Of a stretch of DNA of 64,000 nucleotides, positions 13,036-60,259 are shown piece after piece (within the stretch, counting starts at the first letter, position 1; every line of letters starts with the position of its first letter). The DNA comes from Chloroflexi bacterium CSP1-4 (GTDB lineage Bacteria > Chloroflexota > Limnocylindria > Limnocylindrales > CSP1-4). Under the pieces are notes generated by a model. That model was not told where the DNA came from, ran no database searches, and saw nothing but the letters and a program-made list of their open reading frames with translations. The translations under genes were made by a program, and so were the position numbers. Where the stretch lies: contig LDXM01000004.1 in NCBI GenBank assembly GCA_001443375.1, positions 75,266-139,265 on the forward strand, read 5' to 3'.

Positions 13036-14464
13036 CAGGAGGCGGCCGACGGCGGCATGGTTGGCTCCGCTGCGAGCTGCGGCGTGCGGGGCAGGACCAC
13101 TCCCACCCGTGCGCCGCCGATGGGCAGATTCTCCGCGAATGCGCGCCCGCCGTGGGCGCGTGCCAGCTCGTCCACGATGGCCAGTCCCAGGCCGCTGCCG
13201 GGCCCGGAGCGCGACGGGTCGGCGCGGTAGAAACGTTCGAAGATGCGCCCCAGCGCCGCGCCGGCGATGCCCGGCCCATCGTCGCGCACCGCGAGCAGGA
13301 CCTCGCCGCCGGGCAGGGCCGCCGCCTCCACCGTCACGTGCCCCCCGGGCCGGGGCGCGTGCGCCAGCCCGTTGGCGACGAGGTTGCCAAGGATGCGCTC
13401 GACCGCGCTGCGGTCGGCGGCGCAGGGCAGGGGACCCGCCACCGGCAGCGCGGTGAGCTCCAAGCCCTCCGCGCCCGCCCGCGGTGCGAAGCGCTCCACG
13501 GCCGCGGCCGCCAGCTCCCCGCCGTCGAGCTGCTCGACGCGCAACGGCCGGCCCGCCTCGAGATCGGCGAGGTCGCCCAGGTCGTCCACCATCCGCTCCA
13601 GGCGCGACGTCTCGTCGGCGATGGCCCGGGCCGCCCTGGCCCAATCCGGGCCGTCGGCGGTGCCGTCGAGCAGCGCCTCGGCGAAGCCGCCGATGACCGT
13701 CAGGGGCGTGCGCAGGTCGTGGCGCAGGCCGGCCAGGAGGTCGGCCTGCGCCGTGCGGGCGTGGCCGACCTCGGCGCTCATGGCGTTGAAGGCGGCGCTC
13801 GCCCGGGCGACCTCCTGCGGGCCCTCCTCGGGCAGCGGTCCCGGCAGCCGGCCGCCCGCGACGCGGCCCGCCGCCGTCGCCAACCGGTCTAGCGGCCGCG
13901 TCACGGAGCCCGAGAGCCAGACCGCGAGCGGCGCGCCGACGACGGCGACGACAAGGCCCGCCACGAACAGGGCCCGGACGAGGTCGGCCAGCGCCCGACG
14001 TCCCGCATCGTCCGGCCGGGCGAGCACGAGCGCCCACGGGCCGCTCTGGGTAAGGGCGCCGCCGAACGGGGCGGCGACGTAGACGTACGAGCCCGTGCTC
14101 GGCACGGCGAACGTGCCACGATCGATCGTCCCCCGCGCGTTCGGTGGGTCGAGGTCCACGCGGTCCACGGGCAGGTCGTCGCCCAGGTCCACCACGCGGC
14201 CGCCCTGGTCCACGAGGAAGAGGCTGATGTCGCGAGCCGCGGTCTGGGCCGTCAGCTCGCGCAGGACGTTGCGCAGGCGAACTCCCTGTTCGATCCGCAG
14301 CCGGGCCTGCGAGACGAGGGGCACCGCAAGGTCGGACAGCGCGGCACTGTTGGCCTCTGCGTGGAGGTCGCGCAGGAGGACGAAGAGGACGCCGCCCAGT
14401 GCGAAGAGGATCGCCAGCGCCAGGAGCGCGAAGGCCCCCGCCACGCGGCCGCGCAGCGTCCTCA
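13035..14464 (-). CDS. sensor histidine kinase (two TM helices, HAMP, HisKA, HATPase_c)
   Basis: N-terminal TM helix (AFALLALAILFALGGVLFVLL) and H-box LRHDLRTPLTV. G-boxes GPGIAGAAL and GSGLGLAIV. ATG (14464-14462) overlaps the RR stop (ATGA). Confidence 0.85.
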
Positions 14465-15151
14465 TACCGGTCGCTCGCGGGGCGGCGGCACGAGCCGGTA
14501 GCCGACGCCGCGGACGGTCTCGATGGGCGGGCCGTCGCCGCCGAGCTTCGTGCGCAGGGCGGCCATATGGACGTCCACGGTGCGGGTTTCGCCGGGGAAG
14601 TCGGTGCCCCAGACTGACTCGAGGAGCACGTCGCGGGTCAGGACCACGCCGGGATCCCGCGCCATGGCGGCGAGAAGGTCGAACTCGCGCGGGCGCAGCT
14701 CGAGACGTCGCGAGCCGACGTAGGCCTCCCGACGGCGCGGGTCGACGCGCAGCGGGCCCACCTCGATGGGGCGTGTCCCTCGGGCGGCGCCGCCGGTGCG
14801 GCGCAGGATGGCGCGCACGCGGGCCACCAGCTCGCGGGGGTTGAACGGCTTGACGAGGTAGTCGTCGGCCCCCAGCTCGAGGCCGACGATGCGGTCCACG
14901 TCGTCGCCGCGCGCGGTGAGCATGAGGATGGGCGTATCGCCGCGGCGGCGCAGCTCGCGCGTGACCTCCCAGCCGTCGAGCTCGGGGAGCATGAGGTCGA
15001 GCACGACCAGGTCGGGGTCGTGGCGTTCGGCGAGGCTGAGCGCCTCGCGGCCGTCGCGGGCGGCCACGACCGCGAAGCCGTCCTTCTCCAGGTACAGCTT
15101 CACCAGCTCGACGATGTTCCGTTCGTCGTCGACGACGAGGATCGTCTTCAT
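14462..15151 (-). CDS. OmpR/PhoB-family response regulator
   Basis: Receiver MKTILVVDDE...DLVVLDLMLP...LTARGD plus a winged-helix C-terminal domain (VHMAALRTKL...VRGVGYRL). Length is 229 aa. TATCCT lies 7 nt upstream of the ATG. Confidence 0.9.
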   Translation of the reverse strand: MKTILVVDDERNIVELVKLYLEKDGFAVVAARDGREALSLAERHDPDLVVLDLMLPELDGWEVTRELRRRGDTPILMLTARGDDVDRIVGLELGADDYLVKPFNPRELVARVRAILRRTGGAARGTRPIEVGPLRVDPRRREAYVGSRRLELRPREFDLLAAMARDPGVVLTRDVLLESVWGTDFPGETRTVDVHMAALRTKLGGDGPPIETVRGVGYRLVPPPRERPV

Positions 15152-16186: not shown

Positions 16187-16825
16187 ATGGAGCTGCTCCA
16201 GCGCGTCGTCGGGCCCATCGCCACGAACGTCTACGTGCTCGGCGACGAGGCCAGCCGCGAGGCGATCGCCATCGACACGGCGACGCCGTGCGTGGTGTGG
16301 CTGACGGAGCGCCTCGCCGAGCGGGGCTGGACGCTCAAGCTCATCGTGAGCACCCACCGCCACTGGGACCACATCGGGGATAACGCGGCCGTCGCGACGG
16401 CGACGGGTGCCGCGATCGCGGCCCATGCCCTCGACCGCCACGGCCTCGAGCACCCGTCGGCGGCCATGGCGCCCTTCCCGATCCCGCCGAGCGTCCCGGC
16501 CGTCGAGCTGGCCGAGGGCGGCATGGTGCGCTTCGGGGAGATCCGTCTCACCGTCCTGCACACGCCGGGGCACACCGAGGGCTCGGTGTGCCTCCTCGCC
16601 GCCGACGCCGGGCTGCTCCTCAGCGGCGACACGCTCTTCGCCGGCGGGTGGGGTCGCGTCGATCTCGAGGGCGGCTCGCCCGAGGCGATGGTGGCCTCGA
16701 TGGAGCGCCTGGCGCGCCTGGATCCGAGCCTGCGCGTGCTGCCCGGCCACGGCCCGGCCACGACGATCGAGCGAGAACATCCCTGGATGGAGCTGGTCGC
16801 CCGGGAGCGCCGACTCTTCGCCTAA
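16187..16825 (+). CDS. MBL-fold metallo-hydrolase (glyoxalase II-like)
   Basis: HRHWDHIG motif, HTPGHTEGS and SGDTLF. Length is 212 aa. Confidence 0.8.
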   Translation: MELLQRVVGPIATNVYVLGDEASREAIAIDTATPCVVWLTERLAERGWTLKLIVSTHRHWDHIGDNAAVATATGAAIAAHALDRHGLEHPSAAMAPFPIPPSVPAVELAEGGMVRFGEIRLTVLHTPGHTEGSVCLLAADAGLLLSGDTLFAGGWGRVDLEGGSPEAMVASMERLARLDPSLRVLPGHGPATTIEREHPWMELVARERRLFA

Positions 16826-17835
16826 GCGAACGGCTTCTCGTAGGCCGTCCCGCTCGTGTCGACGACGAACCCGCAGCTCTCGTAGAGGTGCAGTGCCTGG
16901 TGCGGGTTCTGCGCATCGACGCCCAGCGAGGCGCTCGTCTCGCCGTGCTCGCGCAGGGCGCGCAGGGCGCGCACGATCAGCCCGCGGGCCAGCCCGCGCC
17001 GCCGCCAGGGCCGCCGCACCGCGACCGAGTCGAGAACGCCTCGCCGGAGTCCGAAGCGGGCGTTGTCCTGCGCATGGACCGCCACGAGCACGTGGCCGGC
17101 GACCTGATCACCGTCCCAGGCCACCTGCCACAGCTCGGGGACCAGGTCCGGCTCGCCGAGGAAGCGCTGGTATGCCTCCTCTCCCTCGTCGACCTCGCCC
17201 CAGTGGTCGCGGAAGGCCTCCACGTCGGCCTCCCAGATCGGGCGCCAGTGCTGGGGGAGCACGGGCCGCACCTCGAGCCCCTCGGGCATCGCCAGCGCGG
17301 GGATCGCCTCGAGGTCCGGTCGCACCATGTCGAAGAAGTGGCGGGCGGGCCGGTAGCCCTCGCCGATCACGACCCGCTTGAGCTCGAGGTCGCTGTCCCA
17401 CAGCCACATGCGGAACCGATCGGTCGGGCCCGGCGCTCGCCCGCCGGCCTTCTGGCGCAGGCGGCGCTCCCCGTTGCGCAGCAGCGCCCGCTCGACGCCC
17501 CGACCGCCAAGTCGCGGGTGGAGGATGACTCCCGGCTCATAGACCATGCCGCCGTCGTGGCCGACCTGACATTCGACCCGGGCGTAGCCGGCGATCTCCC
17601 CGTCGAACTCGACGACGAGGCAGTCCTCGAGGGCGATCGAGCCGCTGAGGTGCGCGTAGAGGTTGTCCATCCCCTCGCGGGTGACGAGCTCCCTGACCCC
17701 GATCGACAGGCGCCAGGCGTTGTTGGCCGCGACCATCCCGTCGTGGTCCACCGGCCCGCGGTAGCGGCGAACCCGCAGCCCACGGATCGTGGGGAGGCCC
17801 AGGGCCTCGACGGTGTCGCGGTCGGGAGCGATCAC
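16822..17835 (-). CDS. tandem-GNAT N-acetyltransferase (MshD-like architecture)
   Basis: Two GNAT cores (...VGVRELVTREGMDNLYAHLSG... and ...RRGLARGLIVRALRALREHGETSASLGVDAQN...). GTG at 17835 with GGAGGG 9 nt upstream lies inside the rsgA 3' end, 2 nt after the rsgA TGA. The first 33 codons of the ORF track were trimmed. Confidence 0.7.
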   Translation of the reverse strand: MIAPDRDTVEALGLPTIRGLRVRRYRGPVDHDGMVAANNAWRLSIGVRELVTREGMDNLYAHLSGSIALEDCLVVEFDGEIAGYARVECQVGHDGGMVYEPGVILHPRLGGRGVERALLRNGERRLRQKAGGRAPGPTDRFRMWLWDSDLELKRVVIGEGYRPARHFFDMVRPDLEAIPALAMPEGLEVRPVLPQHWRPIWEADVEAFRDHWGEVDEGEEAYQRFLGEPDLVPELWQVAWDGDQVAGHVLVAVHAQDNARFGLRRGVLDSVAVRRPWRRRGLARGLIVRALRALREHGETSASLGVDAQNPHQALHLYESCGFVVDTSGTAYEKPFA

Positions 17836-17839
17836 GGGT

Positions 17840-18955
17840 TCAGCCCTCCCAGGCGCCGGCTGGCCCGCGCTTGCGAGTCCCGGCGTCATCGGCGGCCAGC
17901 TTCCTGAGGTGGCCGGATCGTCTGGCGGCCGCACGCGAGGCGGACGTCGTGCGCCGGTCGAGAGCGTGCAGCTCCCCTTCCAGCTTCCGCCGGCTCTCCA
18001 GGCGCGCCCCGGCGAGCTCGCCGGCCTCGATGGCCGACCGGACGGCGCAGCCGGGCTCGCGATCGTGGGCGCAGTCGGCGAAACGGCACGCCGCGGCCAG
18101 CGCCTCGATGTCCGCGAAGGCGCGCTCGATCCCCTCGTCGTCCCAGAGAGCGAGGGAGCGCAGGCCCGGCGTGTCGAGGATGAGGCTTCCGCCGGGAAGT
18201 TGGATCAGCTCCCTCGACGTCGTGGTGTGGCGGCCGCGCTCATCGTCCTTACGGATCGAGCGCACGAGCTGACGCTCCTCGCCGAGCAGCGCGTTGACGA
18301 GCGTCGACTTGCCCACCCCGGACGATCCCAGCAGGGCCACCGTCCGGCCCGCCGTGAGATGGGGGAGCAGGTCGGCAAGGCCGGTGCCATCGACGGCGCT
18401 GACGATGTGGATCGATACGCCGATGGCCACCGTCTCCACGCGCCGCCGAGCGGCCTCGAGGTCCGGACAGAGGTCGGCCTTGTTGAGGACGACCACCGGC
18501 AGCGCGCCGCTCGACCATGCCGCACCAAGGTAGCGCTCGAGGCGGCGCATGTTGAAGTCGCCCGGCAAGGCCATGACGATGAAGACTGTGTCGACGTTGG
18601 CCGCCAGCACCTGCACGTCGACGCCCTCGCCGGGGGCGTGGCGGACGAACGCCGTGCGTCGCTCGAGGATGGCGGCGATGCGGGGACCGGGCCCCGGCTC
18701 ATCGTCGGAGGCGGCCTCCAGCGCCACCCAGTCGCCGACCGCCGGCAGATCGCGAGCATCGGTCGCGGCACGGAGCAGGCTGGGGACGACCGTCGTCAAG
18801 CGCTCGCCGTCGGCCGAGCCGACCACGTAGGCCCCGAACGTCGCCGTCAGGACGCGACCCGGCATGCGGCCCTCAGCGGCATGTGGCGCGAAGGCCTGCG
18901 CGCGGCCGGCATCCCAGCCCCAAGCCGTGAGGTGGTGATCGGTGAGGTTCATCAC
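17840..18955 (-). CDS. rsgA: ribosome small-subunit-dependent GTPase A
   Basis: G4 motif NKADL and Walker A GSSGVGKSTLVNAL. G3 motif is DTPG. C-terminal zinc finger CRFADCAHDREPGCAV. GTG start overlaps the permease stop (GTGA). Confidence 0.85.
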   Translation of the reverse strand: MMNLTDHHLTAWGWDAGRAQAFAPHAAEGRMPGRVLTATFGAYVVGSADGERLTTVVPSLLRAATDARDLPAVGDWVALEAASDDEPGPGPRIAAILERRTAFVRHAPGEGVDVQVLAANVDTVFIVMALPGDFNMRRLERYLGAAWSSGALPVVVLNKADLCPDLEAARRRVETVAIGVSIHIVSAVDGTGLADLLPHLTAGRTVALLGSSGVGKSTLVNALLGEERQLVRSIRKDDERGRHTTTSRELIQLPGGSLILDTPGLRSLALWDDEGIERAFADIEALAAACRFADCAHDREPGCAVRSAIEAGELAGARLESRRKLEGELHALDRRTTSASRAAARRSGHLRKLAADDAGTRKRGPAGAWEG

Positions 18956-19752
18956 CCGACTCGCTTCAGCTTGCCCGTCCGCTTGGCATAGCGCTCGGCC
19001 AGGCCGAAGACGCGCACGCCCAGCGGGATGAACACGACGGCCATGACCAGCAGCGGCCAGATGTCGCCGACGAGCGATGTGACCGGCGTGCCGTCGATGA
19101 GCCCCCGGCGCACGCCGTCGAGGATGTAGGTGGCCGGCGAGAAGCGGGCCAGGACCTGCATCCAGTCGGGCAGGATCTCGACCGAGTAGTAGACGCCGCT
19201 CACGAGCAGCAGCAGCGACTGCAGGACGAAGGTCATCTGCGCGCCACGCTCCACGTAGAGCAGCGGGAGCACGGCCGCCATCATGCCGATGCCCACGAAC
19301 GAGAGCGAGCCGACGGCCATGAAGACCGCGGCCGTGAGGAAGTCAGCGTGCGACAGGTCGAGCCCGAAGAAGGCGACCAGGACGGCCAGGATGACCGCCG
19401 TGCTCACCAGCCCGTAGAGGATGGCGTAGAGCGTCGAGCCCAGGAGCTGGGAGGTGCGCCGAACGGGCGCCATCATGGTGTACTCGAGCGTGCCCTCCCA
19501 GCGCTCCCAGGCGATCGTCTCGGCGATGAAGCTGAAGACGACCGAGAGGTAGTTCCAGAAGATCGCGCCGATCATCAGCGACAGGATCAGGCGCGGGTCG
19601 CCCTGCTCCTTGCCGATGAGCGTGATCGAGAGCGCTCCGGCCAGGGCGTAGACGAGGAATGCGGCCTCCCAGCCCCAGTAGCGCTTGGTGAGGTTGAAGT
19701 TCCGTTCGACGAAGGCGTAGCTCGCCTTCAGCTCGCGGCCCATGGCGCTCAT
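18952..19752 (-). CDS. ABC-2 type transporter permease (DrrB-like)
   Basis: 266 aa with 6 TM helices and ABC-2 family topology. GGGAG SD is 7 nt upstream of the ATG. Confidence 0.8.
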   Translation of the reverse strand: MSAMGRELKASYAFVERNFNLTKRYWGWEAAFLVYALAGALSITLIGKEQGDPRLILSLMIGAIFWNYLSVVFSFIAETIAWERWEGTLEYTMMAPVRRTSQLLGSTLYAILYGLVSTAVILAVLVAFFGLDLSHADFLTAAVFMAVGSLSFVGIGMMAAVLPLLYVERGAQMTFVLQSLLLLVSGVYYSVEILPDWMQVLARFSPATYILDGVRRGLIDGTPVTSLVGDIWPLLVMAVVFIPLGVRVFGLAERYAKRTGKLKRVG

Positions 19753-19770: not shown

Positions 19771-19959
19771 TCAGCCCGGGTCGGCCGCGAGGCGCGACCC
19801 GAGCCGGACCATCGAGTGGCCGAGGCGCCGCCGGAGAGACGGCTGCGGTCGGCTCCGGGCTTGGTGGGTGAGATGGCGCCGGGCCTCCGCGGCCCGGCGC
19901 AGGTCGTCGATGCGGCGCTCGTGGAGGCGCCGCACCAGGCGGTCGTCGTGGACGAACAC
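19771..19959 (-). CDS. small basic protein (62 aa, pI very high) between the ABC ATPase and permease genes
   Basis: GTG at 19959 with AGGAG and 7-nt spacing. It starts 18 nt after the ATPase stop and ends 19 nt before the permease ATG. Sequence VFVHDDRLVRRLHERRIDDLRRAAEARRHLTHQARSRPQPSLRRRLGHSMVRLGSRLAADPG. Confidence 0.35.
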   Translation of the reverse strand: MFVHDDRLVRRLHERRIDDLRRAAEARRHLTHQARSRPQPSLRRRLGHSMVRLGSRLAADPG

Positions 19960-19976: not shown

Positions 19977-20894
19977 TCAGTCGTCGTCCGGCTCGGCCTC
20001 CTCGACGTCGTCGTCGAGGGAGCGGCCGGTGAAGGTCATGAAGACGCTCTGGAGCGTCGGTGGCATGCCCAGCTCGTTGGCGACCCGGGCCTTCAGCTCG
20101 GCCGGCGTGCCCTCGGCCACGACGCGTCCCCGATCGAGGATCGCGAGGTGGTCGCAGAGGCGGTCGGCCTCGTCCATGTCGTGCGTGGTGAGCACGATCG
20201 TCGCGTCGTGCGTCGATCGGAGCTCCTCGATGAAGGTCTGCACGTCGAGCTTGGAACGGGGGTCGAGCCCCGTCGTCGGCTCGTCCAGCAGGAGAAGGGT
20301 CGGGCTGGTCAGCAGCGCCCGCGCGATGGCGACCTTCTGCTGCATCCCCCGGCTCATCTGTTCGAGGGGCCGGTCGAGGCGGGTCTCGGCGATGCCGAGT
20401 CGCGCCAGGATGCGCACCGCCTCGCCGCGTGCCACGGACGGCGCGATGCCGTACAGGCGGGCGGCGTATACGAGGTTCTCGGCTGGTGAGAGCTTCTTGA
20501 AGAAGGCCGCATCCGCGCTGACGCGGTTGATCAGCCGCTTGACGGCCATCTCGTCGCGCTCGACGTCGAGACCGAAGATCTCGATGCGTCCCGCATCCAG
20601 CGTCAGCAGCGTGCTGATGAGCCGGATCAGGGTGGACTTGCCGCCGCCGTTGGCGCCGAGGATGCCCAGGATGCCACCCCGCTCCACGCGGAGCGTGACG
20701 TCGTCCACGGCCACGACGGGCCGCTTGTGGCGGCCGACGACGAAGGTCTTGGTGACGTGGTCGATGCGCAGCGCCGGTAGGCCGGAGGCGACCGCGGGGG
20801 ACGCATCGTCCGGGCCGCACTCGGCGCGGCGAGCGGCGTCCGGCGTGACGGCCGGGGCGAGCTCCGTCCGGCGGGGCTCCAGGATGATGCTCAC
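19977..20894 (-). CDS. ABC transporter ATP-binding protein (DrrA-like)
   Basis: Walker A GANGGGKST, signature MSRGMQQKV, Walker B LLLLDEPTTGLD, H-loop. GTG start with AAGGAG 8 nt upstream. Confidence 0.85.
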   Translation of the reverse strand: MSIILEPRRTELAPAVTPDAARRAECGPDDASPAVASGLPALRIDHVTKTFVVGRHKRPVVAVDDVTLRVERGGILGILGANGGGKSTLIRLISTLLTLDAGRIEIFGLDVERDEMAVKRLINRVSADAAFFKKLSPAENLVYAARLYGIAPSVARGEAVRILARLGIAETRLDRPLEQMSRGMQQKVAIARALLTSPTLLLLDEPTTGLDPRSKLDVQTFIEELRSTHDATIVLTTHDMDEADRLCDHLAILDRGRVVAEGTPAELKARVANELGMPPTLQSVFMTFTGRSLDDDVEEAEPDDD

Positions 20895-20996
20895 GGGTCG
20901 TGCTCCTTGGTGGGTGCGATCGAGTCGAACGAGGTGGACGGGCCCCCGCGAAGGCGGGACGTTCGGCTTTCGATGGCACCCCGCAGGGAGCGGGGC

Positions 20997-21033
20997 AACA
21001 AAAAAGCCGGGGGGCCGATCCGGGCCCTCCGGC
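20997..21033 (-). terminator. intrinsic terminator (minus strand) between the 33-aa ORF and the ABC operon
   Basis: Minus strand reads GCCGGAGGGCC-CGGATC-GGCCCCCCGGC (10/11 bp stem) followed by TTTTTTGTT. This is the only A/T run of that length in the region. Confidence 0.6.
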
Positions 21034-21064
21034 TCCAGCGTCCTGGCGGCTTGGCCGCCTGTCG

Positions 21065-21166
21065 CTAGGTCGTGAAGGGCACAGATCTCCCGCTGTCGGC
21101 GGCGCCGAGAGGCGCGGCCGTCCGCAGCCGGAAGGCCACGGCGCTGGAGCGGAAGTTGGGCGACAT
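21065..21166 (-). CDS. small ORF, 33 aa (MSPNFRSSAVAFRLRTAAPLGAADSGRSVPFTT); candidate leader peptide or small protein
   Basis: ATG at 21166 with AAGGAG SD (plus ctcctt 21179-21184, 12-nt spacing). A promoter lies 40 nt upstream and a terminator 30 nt downstream. It is on the same strand and directly upstream of the ABC ATPase gene. Confidence 0.4.
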   Translation of the reverse strand: MSPNFRSSAVAFRLRTAAPLGAADSGRSVPFTT

Positions 21167-21213
21167 CTGTGCTGACGACTCCTTTCCCGGCGCGCGGCTG
21201 GCGCGCCGCCGGC

Positions 21214-21243
21214 AGGATAGGTGAGCGGGCGGTCGGATGTCAA
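21214..21243 (-). promoter_or_regulatory. sigma70-type promoter TTGACA-N18-TATCCT driving the 33-aa ORF transcript
   Basis: Minus strand has TTGACA (plus 21238-21243), an 18-nt spacer, and TATCCT (plus 21214-21219). A GGCGCGC-cagcc-GCGCGCC hairpin lies at the predicted 5' end of the transcript. Confidence 0.5.
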
Positions 21244-21350
21244 CCAGCTGTGCGCATCCTTGTGGACGGCCAGCTGTGCGCATCCTGTTGATGGGCTGAG
21301 CGCATCCTGCTGTGCGCATCCTGTGCGCATCCGTGTTGGTGTGCGCATCC
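21244..21350. repeat. array of six direct repeats (A/T)GCGCATCC immediately upstream of the -35 element
   Basis: Copies at 21251-21259, 21277-21285, 21299-21307, 21313-21321, 21324-21332 and 21342-21350, all in the same orientation. The first two are embedded in a 17-bp duplication CCAGCTGTGCGCATCCT (21244-21260, 21270-21286). The nearest copy is 7 nt from the -35 hexamer. Confidence 0.6.
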
Positions 21351-21753
21351 TGTCGGATCTCGCGCCGGCGTCGCGCCGCGCTGCCGCATGCCAGCCGGTC
21401 ATGCGGGCGGCCGAACCCACGCTCATCTACGGCTCGATGAGGACCCATCGCAGGGCGGTCGAGCGCGGAATCGAGGGCTCGGATGCCCCGGGGGCATACG
21501 GCTGGCCGGGGCATACCCGGTGGTGGAGAGTGGGACAGCGGGGCGTACAACGTGCGCGGCGATCGCCCCGCTGTCCTGCCGTCGCGGGCGGACCCGGACG
21601 GGGTCAGGCCGCGCGGTGTCGGCAAGTTGACACTCCGCACGTCGGCACGGAGTCGGTATGCGCCCTGCCGATGCGCCTACACTTCGTCTCGTACCCGATC
21701 GCCACACGGCGAGGGACACATCGCCGAGCGGCGACGGACATGCGGAGACGACC

Positions 21754-22299
21754 ATGCGCGAGCAGGCCATCCAATTCGTAGGCGAGCCGGGAGCCGGCGG
21801 CATCGCCGCGACCGTCGACGCGGCCGAGGCGGAGCGCCTTCTCGCCCTGCTCGGGGGTACGGGGCAGATCGAGATCGGCCTGGCGGCCGAGGACGAAGAC
21901 GATGTCGAGGGCCACCTCTTCGGTGCCGGCGCCATCGTCAGACTCATCGTCCGCCGTCCCGACGGCGACGATGTCGAGGGGCACACCCTCACGCTGCGCT
22001 TCCCCACGGCGGCGGAAGCAGCCAGGTTCAAGACGAAGGTGCTTGCCGGCGGTCTGCTGGTCGGTACGCTCATCGCCCCGGCGGCCGGGCTGGCCGGCAC
22101 GCAGGCGCAGGCGGCGAGCCTCGCCGACGCGAACGTGGGCGAGGCGCCGGCGGCGACGGTCCAGTTCCAGGCGCCGATCTTCCACGACGACAAGCTGCAG
22201 ATCGTGCTGCCCGACGATGCGGCGAGTGGTGGCAGCGGCGAGAATAACCAGATGGGTTCGGCCGTCGCCTGGATGACGCGAACCGACAGCAGCCGCTGA
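21754..22299 (+). CDS. hypothetical protein with internal DDVEGH repeat and one predicted TM helix
   Basis: ATG at 21754 with GGAGAC 6 nt upstream. Length is 181 aa. Repeated segment DEDDVEGHLFGAGAIVRLIV / DGDDVEGHTLTLRFP. Diverse, real-looking composition. Confidence 0.5.
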   Translation: MREQAIQFVGEPGAGGIAATVDAAEAERLLALLGGTGQIEIGLAAEDEDDVEGHLFGAGAIVRLIVRRPDGDDVEGHTLTLRFPTAAEAARFKTKVLAGGLLVGTLIAPAAGLAGTQAQAASLADANVGEAPAATVQFQAPIFHDDKLQIVLPDDAASGGSGENNQMGSAVAWMTRTDSSR

Positions 22300-22352
22300 T
22301 CGGGCCTGGCCCGGTCAAGACCCCGGCACGTGCCGTACACGGCGGTCGCCTC

Positions 22353-22964
22353 GTGCGACCGCCGTTTCGCATGACCGGCTCCGTCCGCGTTCCCTCGCCC
22401 CCGCGCTCGATCGTCGGCTGGATCGCGGCCGGGGCCCTCGATGCGAACCTGGCGGCCGTCGTCTGGCTGCTCGCCGAGGGCGGGGTCCCGGTCGTCGTCG
22501 CCGGTGCGCCGGGCAGCGGCCGCTCGGCGCTACTGGGCGCCATCCGCGAGCTGGCCGGTACGCGCAGTCGGCCAGCGCTGCCATCGCGCCTGCCGGGGAT
22601 CGTCGAGGGGCGCTCGCTCGAGGAGGTCCAGGCGCACTTCGCGGAGTCACCACTCGGCGCCAGCGAGGACGAGTTGCGCGGCCTCGGCGTCGTCCTCGTG
22701 CTCGAGGTCGCGGCGACCGGGCGGCGGCACGTGGTCGCCGCACACTACGTGCGACCCATTGAGCGCGACGGCCAGGGACACGTGCAGCGCCGGCCGCCGG
22801 CGCTGCTCGCGGCGTGGGATGCGGCGCGCGACGCCTTCGACGACTACGCCTGGGGGATCGTCACCGAACTCGCCGCGCGCGTCGGCCGCGAGCCTGCCGA
22901 GTTCGACCGTGAGCGGACGCGGCGGGCGACGCATCTGGCAGGCCTCGTCGCCACCCTGCACTGA
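22353..22964 (+). CDS. hypothetical protein with degenerate Walker-A-like motif (GAPGSGRSALL; Lys replaced by Arg)
   Basis: 203 aa. VVVAGAPGSGRSALLGAIRELAG resembles a P-loop without the lysine. No other recognisable motifs. Start is uncertain (GTG at 22353 or ATG at 22371). Confidence 0.35.
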   Translation: MRPPFRMTGSVRVPSPPRSIVGWIAAGALDANLAAVVWLLAEGGVPVVVAGAPGSGRSALLGAIRELAGTRSRPALPSRLPGIVEGRSLEEVQAHFAESPLGASEDELRGLGVVLVLEVAATGRRHVVAAHYVRPIERDGQGHVQRRPPALLAAWDAARDAFDDYAWGIVTELAARVGREPAEFDRERTRRATHLAGLVATLH

Positions 22965-49248: not shown

Positions 49249-50172
49249 ATGCTCGACCGCCTGCTGAGTCACGGTCTGGCGCTCGTGGAGCGGGCGCTGC
49301 GCGTCCCCTGGATCGCCGAGGCGAGAAGCGTCGTGGCCGCCGACGCCGAGGCCGGCGGAAGCCTTCTCGCGGCCGCACTGGCGTATCGGGCCCTGTTCGG
49401 CCTCCTCTCCGGGCTCGTATGTGTGGCTGGGTTGATCGGCTGGCTCTTCGAGGACCCGACGCGACGGGCGGACGCCGTGGCGACCCTCGCGACGCTCGTG
49501 CCGGGAGTCGAACCGGTGGCCGGGATCGGGCTCGATTCCTTCGTTGCCGGCCGCGGTGCGCTCTCGATCCTGGGGCTCGTGGGCGCCGCCTGGGGCGCCA
49601 GCGCCTTCTATGACGCCCTGGACGGGGCCATCAACCGGGTGCTGCCCGGGTTGCGCGAGCGCAACCCGTTCGAGCGCCGCCTGCGCGGCATCGGCGCGGT
49701 GGTCGTGCTGGCGCTGTCCGGCGTGCTGGCCCTGGGCATCGGAGTGGCGCTGCCGACACTGCAGGACGTGGTGGGCGGCGAGCCGCTGCGCTTCCTCGTC
49801 GGGGCAGGGGAGGTCGGTCTGACCGTCGCCGTGCTGTGGGCGGGCGTCGTGACGATCTATCGCCTCGTGCCGACCGCCGCGCCATCGCTGTCCGCGGCGG
49901 GTCTGCCGGCGCTGGCCGTGGGCTGCGGCATCTGGCTCGCGGCGCAGGCCTATGCGCTGTTGACACCCCTGCTGGTGGGCGGCCTGGCCGTCTTCGGCGT
50001 CTTCGTCTCGCTGTTCGGCCTGCTCATCTGGCTCGGCTGGGTGAGCCAGCTGCTGCTCCTCGGCGCGTCATGGACGCGGGTCCGGCGCGACGGCAGCGGC
50101 GCGCTCATTCCTGGCGCGACCCGCAGCGACGGCAGAAGCGGGCCGACGCCGACAGGGGCAGGCCGCAGCTGA
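49249..50172 (+). CDS. YihY/BrkB (virulence factor BrkB / RNase BN-like) family membrane protein
   Basis: 307 aa with 6 TM helices and YihY-like topology (GGSLLAAALAYRALFGLL...). Confidence 0.8.
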   Translation: MLDRLLSHGLALVERALRVPWIAEARSVVAADAEAGGSLLAAALAYRALFGLLSGLVCVAGLIGWLFEDPTRRADAVATLATLVPGVEPVAGIGLDSFVAGRGALSILGLVGAAWGASAFYDALDGAINRVLPGLRERNPFERRLRGIGAVVVLALSGVLALGIGVALPTLQDVVGGEPLRFLVGAGEVGLTVAVLWAGVVTIYRLVPTAAPSLSAAGLPALAVGCGIWLAAQAYALLTPLLVGGLAVFGVFVSLFGLLIWLGWVSQLLLLGASWTRVRRDGSGALIPGATRSDGRSGPTPTGAGRS

Positions 50173-51151
50173 AGCAGGCCTGCACGCCCGAGCCGGGCCG
50201 GTTGATGACGCCGACGCTGGACTCCTCCCAGACGCTGGGCGTCGGCGGCAGGGCCTGGGATGCCGGTGTCGCCGGCCGCGGCCACGATGGCACCGGGGCG
50301 GCGGGCGATGGCGTCGGGCGCGGCAGGGCGGCGGGCGGTCGATAGACCGGGGCCTGGGGCGGCCAGGCCGGCGTGGGTTCCGCGGAGGGGGCATCGGGCG
50401 CGACCATCGTCCAGGCCGGCGCCACGCGCGGAGGCGCTGGCGGCACGAGAGGTGCCTCCGGCGCGGTCGGTGGCTGGACCACCCCGGCCTCCGGCTCGAC
50501 CGCCGCGGCCTCGGGCTCCGGCGCGGCGGCACCCTGGACTTCGGCCGGCTCCTCCCCCGGCAGCTCGACCGGCGTCAGCAGCTCGGGCAGGTACGCGTCG
50601 GGGGCGGCCTCGACGACGGAGTCCACCGCGGGCGCGGCCTGCGCCTCGACGACGGCTGCGGGTTCGGGCTCGGCGGCGACGGTGGCGGCCTCGACGATCG
50701 CGACCGGTGCCTCGACGGCGGGCAGGTCGATGGTCGGCCAGGCCTCCTCGCGGTCGTGCCCGTTCGCCGACGCCTCCGGCAGCGGCACCGCGATGGGCTC
50801 CAGGGTCGCCATCGCCGTCTCGATCCGGCCCGGCATGGGGGCGCAGGTCAGGCAGCGCCCGTCGACCTCGTTCCAGCAGCTCGTGCAGGTGTACTGGCGG
50901 CAGTCCATGCAGAAGTTGAAGGTGTGGTGGAAGGCCTCCATCTGCGCGGCCGCTCGACCACGCTCATCGTCGCGGCGGGCGTCGGCCAGGGCCGCCTCGA
51001 GGGGATCGTTGGACATGACGAAGTTCCTGAGCCCGCGCACGAGGACCCGCGCCTTGGCCACGGTCGGGCGCTTCGTCTGGGGCGCACCGGTCTCGAACGC
51101 ATAGCGCGTGCCACAGCGTTCGCAGAACGATTCGGTGAGGATCTCGGGCAT
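50105..51151 (-). CDS. double zinc-ribbon protein with long Pro/Ala-rich linker
   Basis: ATG at 51151. N-terminal CERCG...CMDC...CTSC...CLTC and C-terminal CFSCG...CRRCG zinc ribbons are separated by a ~150-aa low-complexity PEAPA region. TATACT lies about 56 nt upstream on the minus strand. Upstream ORF-track codons were rejected. Confidence 0.55.
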   Translation of the reverse strand: MPEILTESFCERCGTRYAFETGAPQTKRPTVAKARVLVRGLRNFVMSNDPLEAALADARRDDERGRAAAQMEAFHHTFNFCMDCRQYTCTSCWNEVDGRCLTCAPMPGRIETAMATLEPIAVPLPEASANGHDREEAWPTIDLPAVEAPVAIVEAATVAAEPEPAAVVEAQAAPAVDSVVEAAPDAYLPELLTPVELPGEEPAEVQGAAAPEPEAAAVEPEAGVVQPPTAPEAPLVPPAPPRVAPAWTMVAPDAPSAEPTPAWPPQAPVYRPPAALPRPTPSPAAPVPSWPRPATPASQALPPTPSVWEESSVGVINRPGSGVQACFSCGLPLSASARFCRRCGSRQE

Positions 51152-51301
51152 GGGTACGGGGATGGGATCGTCCTCGCGCGCGTGGCAGCCGGTGCCACGG
51201 GGGACAGAGTATAGTCCCGGCCGTCGAGCCCTCCCCCCGACGGGGGTACTCCCGGTGGCCGGGAGATGGTCCGGGGTCCCTCTGCTAGACTCGCCGACCC
51301 G

Positions 51302-52051
51302 ATGGCCCGTCCTCTCGCCGCACTCGAGCGCTTCTTCGAACGCCTCGTCGAGCGACCGATCGGCCGCCTCTTCCGCGCCCCGCTGGAGCCCGTCCAGGTC
51401 GAGCGGCGGCTCGGGCTGGCCATGGACGAGGGCCGGCGGACGGTGGCGGGCAGGACCCTCGCACCCGACCGCTACCGCGTCCAGCTCCATGCCCACGACC
51501 TCGCGTCGCTCCTGCGGGCGGATGCCAGGCTCGAGGCACGACTGGCGGAGGCGCTCCTTGCCCGCGCGCGAGCCAGAAGCTACGCGCTGCTCGACCGGCC
51601 GCGCGTGACCCTCCACGCTAACGCGGCCGTGCCGCGCGGCGACGTGGCCGTGACGGCGACGATCGTGGATCGACCCGCGGCAGGTCCGGACGCACCGTCG
51701 GGCGGTGAGGGCCTCCCCCTGGAGGCCACTGCCGTCTTCCCGGTCCCGGTTCCCACGCTGCCCCGCGCCGTCCTCGTCATGGGTGCGCCCGGGCGACCGG
51801 AGCGACGCACGCCGATCGAGAGCACGCCGATCCGCATCGGGCGCGCCACGGATAACGATGTCGTCCTGCCCGACGAACGGGTCTCGCGCCACCACGGCCT
51901 GCTGCTCCTGCGCCAGGGAGCGCTGGTCTACCGCGATCTTGGCAGCGCCAACGGCACGTTCCTCGGGGCGGCGCGCGTGAGCGAGGTGGCACTTGGATCG
52001 GGCGACGTGCTCCGCCTCGGCGAGACGACCTTGCGCGTGGAGGTCGCCTGA
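51302..52051 (+). CDS. fhaA: FhaA-like protein (DUF3662 N-domain plus C-terminal FHA domain)
   Basis: ATG at 51302 is 10 nt after TAGACT. The N-terminus ALERFFERLVERPIGRLF is FhaA-typical. The C-terminal FHA domain has IRIGRATDNDVVLPDERVSRHHGLLL...GSANGTFLG. Confidence 0.8.
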   Translation: MARPLAALERFFERLVERPIGRLFRAPLEPVQVERRLGLAMDEGRRTVAGRTLAPDRYRVQLHAHDLASLLRADARLEARLAEALLARARARSYALLDRPRVTLHANAAVPRGDVAVTATIVDRPAAGPDAPSGGEGLPLEATAVFPVPVPTLPRAVLVMGAPGRPERRTPIESTPIRIGRATDNDVVLPDERVSRHHGLLLLRQGALVYRDLGSANGTFLGAARVSEVALGSGDVLRLGETTLRVEVA

Positions 52052-60180: not shown

Positions 60181-60259
60181 CCTCATGCGCACGTCCCCGG
60201 AACGTTAGAAGCGGCAACCCACCCGGTTCCCTTCATGCGCACGCCCCTTGGGCGCATGA
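60181..60259. repeat. direct and inverted repeats TCATGCGCACG x2 plus GCGCATGA forming a hairpin in a convergent intergenic gap
   Basis: CCTCATGCGCACGTCCCC (60181-60198) and CTTCATGCGCACGCCCC (60229-60246). TCATGCGC-N11-GCGCATGA forms an 8-bp stem. GGAGCCG-atct-CGGCTCC hairpin at 60258-60275. The core ATGCGCAC is the reverse complement of the GTGCGCAT repeat at 21250-21350. Confidence 0.5.

Follow-up and report, generated by a model that had tools for sequence, protein, structure and literature searches.

A species-specific, structurally polymorphic array of direct repeats upstream of a conserved exporter promoter in Limnocylindrales

Introduction

Why should six short repeats, all in the same orientation, be packed immediately upstream of a bacterial promoter? 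The question is raised by a 64-kb stretch of DNA from Chloroflexi bacterium CSP1-4, the whole of which was analysed and is called the window below (G+C content 72.6%). An initial annotation, made from the letters alone, had noticed such an array next to a -35 element and had likened it to the binding sites of an OmpR/PhoB-type activator or to iterons. Here we describe the array, the promoter and the transcribed leader that adjoin it, and we compare the locus with contigs of the same species and with its counterparts in other species of Limnocylindrales. The array belongs to a known general kind: it is a tract of direct repeats, specific to one species and polymorphic in its structure. We favour the reading that it is young, arose by serial local duplications and has a neutral or at most modulatory effect, a reading in which our belief and our doubt are about evenly balanced.

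Materials and Methods

Contigs of the same species were found by looking up exact matches to two proteins encoded at the locus, the 33-aa peptide and the 181-aa protein, together with a metagenome scan with a 22-mer made of the proximal repeat (u1) plus the -35 element, which a single contig, L126, matched. The contigs of this species include ena:ERZ27254795:k141_2429733 and jgi Ga0209640_10000133, and its variants come from JGI samples 3300025324, 3300002149 and 3300002120, the ENA ERZ272548xx series and ERZ4902948. The orthologous locus was compared in eight other species (L121-L123, L125 and L127-L130), whose ATPases are 76-87% identical to that of the window by best local alignment, in some cases over only 82-88% of the query. 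The closest other species, P0002 (86% identity), was left out of the locus comparison.

Results

On the plus strand the motif WGCGCATCC starts at 21251, 21277, 21299 (the A variant), 21313, 21324 and 21342, in exact agreement with the six same-orientation copies of the initial annotation. These same-strand copies of (T/A)GCGCATCC, named u1 to u6 from the promoter outwards, form the sole cluster of this kind in the window (Table 1). The motif extends to 12-16 nt (CTGTGCGCATCC), and CCAG precedes two of the copies. Start-to-start spacings are 26, 22, 14, 11 and 18 bp, which places the copy centres at about -46, -72, -94, -108, -119 and -137 if transcription starts near 21207, as the promoter described below would predict. 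Copies u3-u5 run head to tail (TRF periods 14 and 11, 93-100% match), unlike u1, u2 and u6, which are set apart by spacers of 7-14 nt; all non-empty spacers that follow a copy open with TG(T). The 17-bp duplication reported earlier is real, CCAGCTGTGCGCATCCT being present at 21244 and again at 21270.

Table 1. Coordinates of the array, the adjoining promoter and leader, the operon and the insertion (window positions unless a contig is named)
Feature	Position	Strand	Remarks
Array of six direct repeats	21248..21350	-	Minus-strand reading GGATGCGCACAG; about -41 to -143 from the predicted start site
12-mers u1, u2, u3	21248-21259, 21274-21285, 21296-21307 (CTGAGCGCATCC)	+	
12-mers u4, u5, u6	21310-21321, 21321-21332, 21339-21350 (GTGTGCGCATCC)	+	
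16-bp unit CCAGCTGTGCGCATCC	21244..21259	.	Identical copy at 21270-21285
Predicted sigma-70-type promoter	21214..21243	-	TTGACA 21243-21238, 18-nt spacer, TATCCT 21219-21214
33-codon leader ORF MSPNFRSSAVAFRLRTAAPLGAADSGRSVPFTT	21065..21166	-	AAAGGAG in front; ATG and TAG invariant
Hairpin GGCGGC-caa-GCCGCC	21045-21059		Directly upstream of the terminator
Intrinsic terminator AGCCGGAGGGCC-CGGATC-GGCCCCCCGGCT, then TTTTTT	21000..21034	-	Nearly invariant across species
DrrA-like ABC transporter ATP-binding protein	19977..20894	-	First large gene of the operon
62-aa ORF	19771-19959	-	Between the ABC ATPase and permease genes
ABC-2 permease	18952-19752	-	Operon, after the 62-aa ORF
RsgA GTPase	17840-18955	-	Operon, after the ABC-2 permease
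GNAT protein	16822-17835	-	Operon, after RsgA
Rest of the 859-nt divergent intergenic region	21353..21753	.	
IS1202-family insertion	L126 9862-9938; L140, L134 1-1013		Insertion point at window 21259/21260

How unusual is this arrangement for the genome segment? WGCGCATCC has 15 matches in the window against 2.9 +/- 1.7 in shuffled sequence, and at least 15 matches were reached in 0 of 100 shuffles. With at most one mismatch, the 14-mer CTGTGCGCATCCTG is found in the window in the array and otherwise at one coding site alone (20406-20419), where it supplies V-R-I-L codons of the ABC ATPase gene. When all 9-mers were scanned, the array emerged as the top same-strand cluster of the window, and just one other cluster of at least four copies was present, at 50607 inside a predicted gene (50105-51895). 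Local direct repeats of at least 10 nt occur in two of the 18 other intergenic regions (each at least 80 nt long), so a general tendency to duplication is insufficient by itself to explain the array.

Elsewhere in the window, the convergent intergenic region at 60181-60259 carries TCATGCGCACG twice, 50 nt apart, with an inverted copy that can pair into a hairpin of some 10 bp, a candidate for either a recurrent short element or a terminator lacking the T tract. The repeat at 60183/60233 has an 8-mer, ATGCGCAC, in common with the array motif, a hint that the motif is recurrent.

The claim that the copies abut a -35 element stands for the minus strand, on which TTGACA-18-TATCCT lies 4 nt from the proximal copy (minus-strand reading), and fails for the plus strand, on which no promoter was found in 20800-21900. 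The minus-strand promoter is the one sigma-70-like site in that interval (0.0 expected) and agrees with the consensus at 10 of 12 positions. The array is bracketed by two strings, GAGATCCGAC on its distal side (21353-21362) and GACATCCGAC within the -35 element and spacer (21231-21240, minus strand).

The same gene order was found at the locus in all eight other species, and the drrAB-like ABC-2 exporter/rsgA operon is conserved behind the promoter in each. The -35 hexamer is invariant in all eight aligned sequences and the -10 region is conserved. Since TTGACA is the consensus hexamer and stays invariant in eight species that are devoid of the array, the promoter is unlikely to need an activator. 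Downstream, the small ORF, the terminator and the 5' UTR are conserved as well, in large part as nucleotide sequence. Between species the indels of the leader ORF are multiples of three only, and the ORF is annotated as a gene in L123, L125, L131 and L132. The 317-nt leader folds far better than shuffled sequence (z = -4.45), and in the RNAalifold structure the terminator's 5' arm and loop are base-paired with the 3' end of the small ORF. The region varies so little across the aligned species that compensatory changes in this pairing are absent, which leaves attenuation as something that we infer. On this modelled fold, the leader would act by ribosome-dependent attenuation, the alternative pairing letting the position of the ribosome decide termination. 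The leader unit (20895-21207, minus strand) has no counterpart in Rfam. Further into the operon, the 62-aa ORF matched no Pfam or NCBIfam family; most related loci have a counterpart, 62-71 aa long, that is annotated as a gene.

On the other side of the array, a divergent plus-strand gene begins at 21754 and closes an intergenic region of 859 nt. Upstream of the array this region contains the hairpin CCGCATG-N9-CATGCGG (21386-21407), which is kept in L125 (83% identity), where it occurs twice, at 1426-1444 and 1521-1539, 95 nt apart. At 21698-21758 two overlapping short tandem duplications of about two copies each (periods 22 and 14) lie directly upstream of the gene for the 181-aa protein and run into its start. 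The divergent 181-aa and 197-aa proteins (21754-22964, plus strand) are kept beside an aldolase-like gene in relatives; neither received a family assignment, except for a weak FlaI-like P-loop match of the 197-aa protein.

The array itself behaves otherwise than the leader. Upstream of the orthologous promoter, WGCGCATCC occurs in zero copies in the eight species (listed: L122, L123, L125, L127-L130), which sets the array outside the conserved architecture of the promoter. The regulatory information that is conserved would lie downstream of the start site. L125, the closest of these species, has only a degenerate ACATTCGCACAG-N4-TTGACA at the position of u1. Different short tandem duplications lie upstream of the orthologous promoter in L122 (11 nt, twice) and L127 (19 nt, twice), and in L125 a stretch of 30 nt from the -35 region is duplicated (1570-1615). 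Taken with the strings that bracket the array, the duplication in L125 suggests that the DNA upstream of the promoter may have begun as a duplicate of the core promoter. Control of the operon that is conserved would most likely reside in the leader, not upstream of the -35 element.

A scan of contigs with the pattern GTGCGCATCC-N(1-20)-GTGCGCATCC found pairs of GTGCGCATCC no more than 20 nt apart at 120 loci or more (at least), from many phyla. Among the matches listed, nearly all have two or three copies, mostly at spacings that are multiples of three (15, 21, 24, 27, 30), and none has a relative of the ABC operon nearby. These loci may be tandem repeats within coding sequence; the matches are apparently due to chance, and the loci bear no relation to the array of the window.

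Within the species, the flanks of the contigs are 99.5-100% identical to the window and the array differs in structure. Ten contigs from different samples carry the six-copy allele (the window, L131, L133, L135-L139, L141 and L142). Among these there are no SNPs in the 111 nt of the array and about eight polymorphic sites in the adjacent 400 nt or so, all of them within 21353..21753; the SNP-free array is a weak sign of constraint (P about 0.1). In L132, a contig that breaks inside the array, exactly one 26-nt unit is missing, and the end-points of the deletion are marked by the 16-bp unit CCAGCTGTGCGCATCC. In L124, which represents a slightly more divergent strain, there are three copies, the middle one decayed to GGATGCTTTCAC; u3 is joined straight to the distal flank TGTCGGA and u4-u6 are missing. 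Between near-identical flanks, then, the copy number is six, five or three, or the array is split by an insertion sequence, and in both L132 and L124 the end-points of the variation coincide with repeat units, as in a VNTR. The middle copy of L124 (u2) has acquired 4-5 changes in 26 nt, against about four in some 2.6 kb of flank, which argues that no purifying selection acts on it. The 17-nt cores of u1 and u2 are identical in the window's lineage, with spacers next to them that have diverged; the identity of the cores could reflect selection or gene conversion.

The split alleles are found in L126 and L140, which come from one JGI sample, and in L134, so that at least two samples are involved. 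An element of about 1.5 kb lies between u1 and the other five copies, which it parts from the promoter, and the contigs break at the element. Its junctions were each seen on a contig of their own, both from one sample, the full element being unseen in one piece. The 16-bp CCAGCTGTGCGCATCC stands at both junctions as the target-site duplication, and it equals exactly one repeat unit. The element encodes a transposase of 444 aa, which matches the NCBIfam ISNCY model NF033594 through its C-terminal 321 aa, with 256 bits (cut-off 250); in its segment GRVERLWGTKQ, the Q follows the catalytic E by seven residues. The left end reads TGTCGGAGGACAGCGATTCTGTCC..GGACAGCGACTTTGTCACC and the right end ..GGTCAGAATCCCTGTCCCTCGACA, giving TGT..ACA ends with a 52-nt imperfect terminal inverted repeat (83% identity) of which a second, internal copy is present. 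The distal flank of the array, TGTCGGA, is identical to the first 7 nt of the left end. Members of the IS1202 family have a TnsB-like DDE transposase of 394-507 aa with Q at E+7, TGT..ACA ends, imperfect terminal inverted repeats of which the inner repeat has a second, internal copy, and target duplications of either 3-5 bp or 16-28 bp (PMC10132070). Typically, one subgroup makes long duplications of 16-17 bp with no known target preference, and short-duplication members insert 5 bp from XerC arms, a dif-like target that was not found for long-duplication members (Harmer, Pong & Hall 2023, PMC10132070). Judged by these features, all of those tested being present, the inserted element is a member of the IS1202 family and of its long-duplication subgroup. 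The simplest history is an insertion into the five-copy allele of L132, the duplication restoring a sixth copy.

Discussion

Based on these observations, we propose that duplications of DNA just upstream of a constitutive-looking consensus promoter would have built the array. Its presence in one species only, its variability between strains and its interruption by a transposon give it the look of a young local duplication and not of a conserved regulator site. The likely mechanism, inferred from the arrangement of the copies, is slipped-strand mispairing or unequal recombination between short repeats. An older part, u1-u3, with units of 22-26 nt, would be common to the window and the divergent strain L124, and a younger part, u3-u6, with units of 11-18 nt of which u3-u5 are contiguous, would have arisen in the lineage of the window. 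As u4-u6 are missing from L124 and u3-u5 stand head to tail, u4-u6 look like products of recent slippage; the identical cores of u3-u5 need no selection, since tandem copies of this sort are what recent slippage is expected to leave. The repeats may in turn destabilise the site, through whole-unit deletions and through the IS1202-family insertion, which would add a copy by its 16-bp duplication. The array is probably neutral, at most modulating the strength of the promoter, and would seem to lack an essential regulatory role.

The best surviving alternative, which we consider possible though unlikely, is a lineage-specific platform for protein binding: a protein seated on the GGATGCGCACAG units from -41 upstream would tune the exporter promoter, and changes in copy number would tune occupancy. 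Candidates would be a transcription factor, a response regulator or a nucleoid-associated protein. The copies share one orientation throughout and the proximal one lies 4 nt from the -35 element; a core of 11-12 nt is nearly invariant while the spacers of u1, u2 and u6 differ; and the spacings of 11 and 22 bp correspond to one and two helical turns, against which those of 26, 14 and 18 bp are off-phase. The six-copy allele is free of SNPs in ten contigs and the array is exceptional for this genome segment, yet it is missing from eight orthologous promoters, all of which have the consensus -35 element. L125 does retain GCACAG-N4-TTGACA at the matching place. In the window the 8-mer GTGCGCAT exceeds expectation (13 copies, 3.7 expected), three of its eight copies outside the array are intergenic, and of the two other intergenic repeats one (60183/60233) contains it. 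Against a binding protein speak the decayed middle copy of L124 and the persistence of the split alleles. Nor is there a DNA-binding gene adjacent, the 181-aa and 197-aa genes being without a Pfam or NCBIfam DNA-binding domain, a motif near the window's only response regulator, or a second array in the 64 kb.

A tie between the array and the IS1202-family element is an improbable explanation. The unit, or a protein bound to it, would be a preferred target of the element, or else the units would stem from successive 16-bp duplications, each followed by loss of the element. In L126/L140 and in L134, CCAGCTGTGCGCATCC flanks the element on both sides between u1 and the remaining array. The duplicated 16-mer matches the perfect duplication of u1 and u2 in the six-copy allele to within 1 nt, a coincidence whose chance we estimate at about 0.3% for random insertion in the 859-nt spacer, and such long duplications, of 16-17 bp, are typical of one IS1202 subgroup (PMC10132070). 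The opening TG(T) of the non-empty spacers and the distal TGTCGGA, which equals the first 7 nt of the left end, point the same way. Set against this, a single insertion site is known; unit lengths of 11, 14, 18 and 22 do not fit a duplication of 16 bp; the split allele derives most simply from the five-copy allele of L132; and the repeat to which the transposase would bind, GGACAGCGAYTYTGTC, is unrelated to the array motif. The spacer between u1 and u2 was also considered as the scar of an excised element and rejected: none of the spacer strings tested occurs in the IS sequence at hand, and since L124 has the spacer too and it resembles that between u2 and u3, it predates the insertion. It is hardly probable that the 16-bp unit, or a protein bound to it, is a specific target of the element, each insertion duplicating the unit, so that the array would be in part a record of the element and a landing pad for it; if true, this would be the first target specificity for the long-duplication subgroup.

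Two further readings have very little probability in our estimation. In one, the array would act at the level of RNA, as a structured UTR or as a sponge of the CsrB/RsmZ kind with repeated CAGGAUG on the minus strand. CAGGATG is the repeat of CsrB; it is present on the minus strand in four of the six copies, and their irregular spacing is as in CsrB/RsmZ-like sRNAs. Sponges of this type, however, have a promoter and terminator of their own around GGA repeats that hairpin loops present. The conserved start site is downstream of the array, a position on which we reject a CsrA sponge, and there is no promoter upstream of the array on either strand. Its fold differs little from expectation (minus strand, z = -2.0; plus strand, z = -0.7), the GGA motifs fall in loops only inconsistently, related species are without the array, and an Rfam search of the array gave no match at gathering or E-value thresholds. 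In the other reading, to which we lend equally scant credence, the units would be half-sites of Xer/dif type or of another tyrosine recombinase, and this would account for the presence of an IS1202-family element. GTGCGCAT is shared by TGTGCGCATCC and the XerC arms of enterobacteria, (A/G)GTGCGCATAA; the right end of the element lies 5 bp from TGTGCGCATCC, comparable to the short-duplication members (PMC10132070). In a dif or pdif site, an 11-bp XerC arm ending in ATAA is separated by a 6-bp spacer from a XerD arm, TTATGTnAAnT (PMC10132070). The array lacks an inner ATAA, has no TTATG XerD arm after a 6-bp spacer and is not palindromic; the matching orientation falls at the wrong end of the element, and for long-duplication members dif-like targets were not found (PMC10132070). 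As a dif site, TGTGCGCATCC-TGTTGA-TGGGCTGAGCG was rejected, matching only in the outer GTGCGCAT and having no XerD arm.

The original proposal of an OmpR/PhoB-type array or of iterons fails on every feature that we compared, given irregular spacing, a consensus -35 element, no orthologous copies, polymorphism and no adjacent rep or par genes. The phasing of about 10-11 or 21-22 bp expected of OmpR/PhoB-type sites fits only two of the five spacings; a weak or absent -35 element is expected at such promoters and a perfect TTGACA is present; and the sites recur neither at orthologous promoters nor elsewhere in the 64-kb window. The OmpR-family regulator at 14462-15151, 6 kb away, matched the MtrA, PhoB and YycF models only below their cut-offs; no motif lies near it, and no link between it and the repeats was found. 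Iterons are regularly spaced repeats beside a rep or par gene on a replicon or mobile element. The array, in contrast, is irregularly spaced and adjoins genes for an ABC transporter, RsgA, a GNAT protein and an aldolase-like protein, in a gene order common to eight other species, with no rep or par gene adjacent. DnaA boxes are dismissed, the motif being unlike TTGTCCACA and the window offering no dnaA/dnaN context.

What are the implications of a young array at this promoter? If it is only a recent duplication, it counsels caution: tidy repeats that abut a -35 element do not suffice as evidence of an activator site, a question that a look at a few related contigs settles quickly. The alleles also form a natural series of one, three, five and six copies beside a strong conserved promoter in uncultured soil Limnocylindrales, which could be used to test the effects of upstream repeats. 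Two by-products of the analysis may prove of greater use than the array itself. The unit of leader ORF and terminator probably controls the DrrAB-like exporter/RsgA operon across the order, and the coincidence of the 16-bp duplication with a repeat unit bears on target choice in the long-duplication IS1202 subgroup.

Several known systems resemble parts of the locus. With the direct-repeat boxes of the OmpR/PhoB family, such as Pho boxes, the array shares short same-orientation repeats by the -35 element and one pair 11 bp apart; it differs in that Pho-type boxes keep a strict phasing of 11 bp (or 21-22 bp), usually replace a poor -35 element and are kept together with their regulon. Repeat arrays that overlap promoters are also known as iterons or centromere-like sites, among them the Rep iterons of plasmids, ParR/parC and the heptad arrays of omega protein. 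Like the array, they comprise several same-orientation short repeats by a promoter, in copy numbers that vary between sites; here, in contrast, the context is core chromosomal (groEL, tig, clpPX, valS) with no rep or par gene nearby. The likeness to the long-duplication IS1202 subgroup concerns the inserted element, through its ends, its transposase and its 16-bp duplication, and not the array. A target preference is unreported for that subgroup and the site in the array is not dif-like. The order IS end, 5 bp and an 11-mer with a GTGCGCAT core echoes the XerC-arm targeting of the short-duplication subgroup.

Leader-peptide attenuators govern operons of drug exporters, for example bmrB-bmrCD of Bacillus subtilis. 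The leader of the window, as distinct from the repeats, has the same succession of promoter, short ORF, terminator and ABC exporter, with alternative pairing between ORF and terminator; sequence similarity is lacking, as is compensatory covariation in the leader. For the array, a counterpart lies among variable-number repeats associated with promoters, as in contingency-type loci, of which Neisseria nadA with its upstream TAAA tract is an example. The units of the array are 11-26 nt in length, only partly contiguous and separated by heterogeneous spacers, and one allele dominates most samples with no sign of rapid on/off switching. In both cases, a tract upstream of the core promoter gains and loses whole units between strains.
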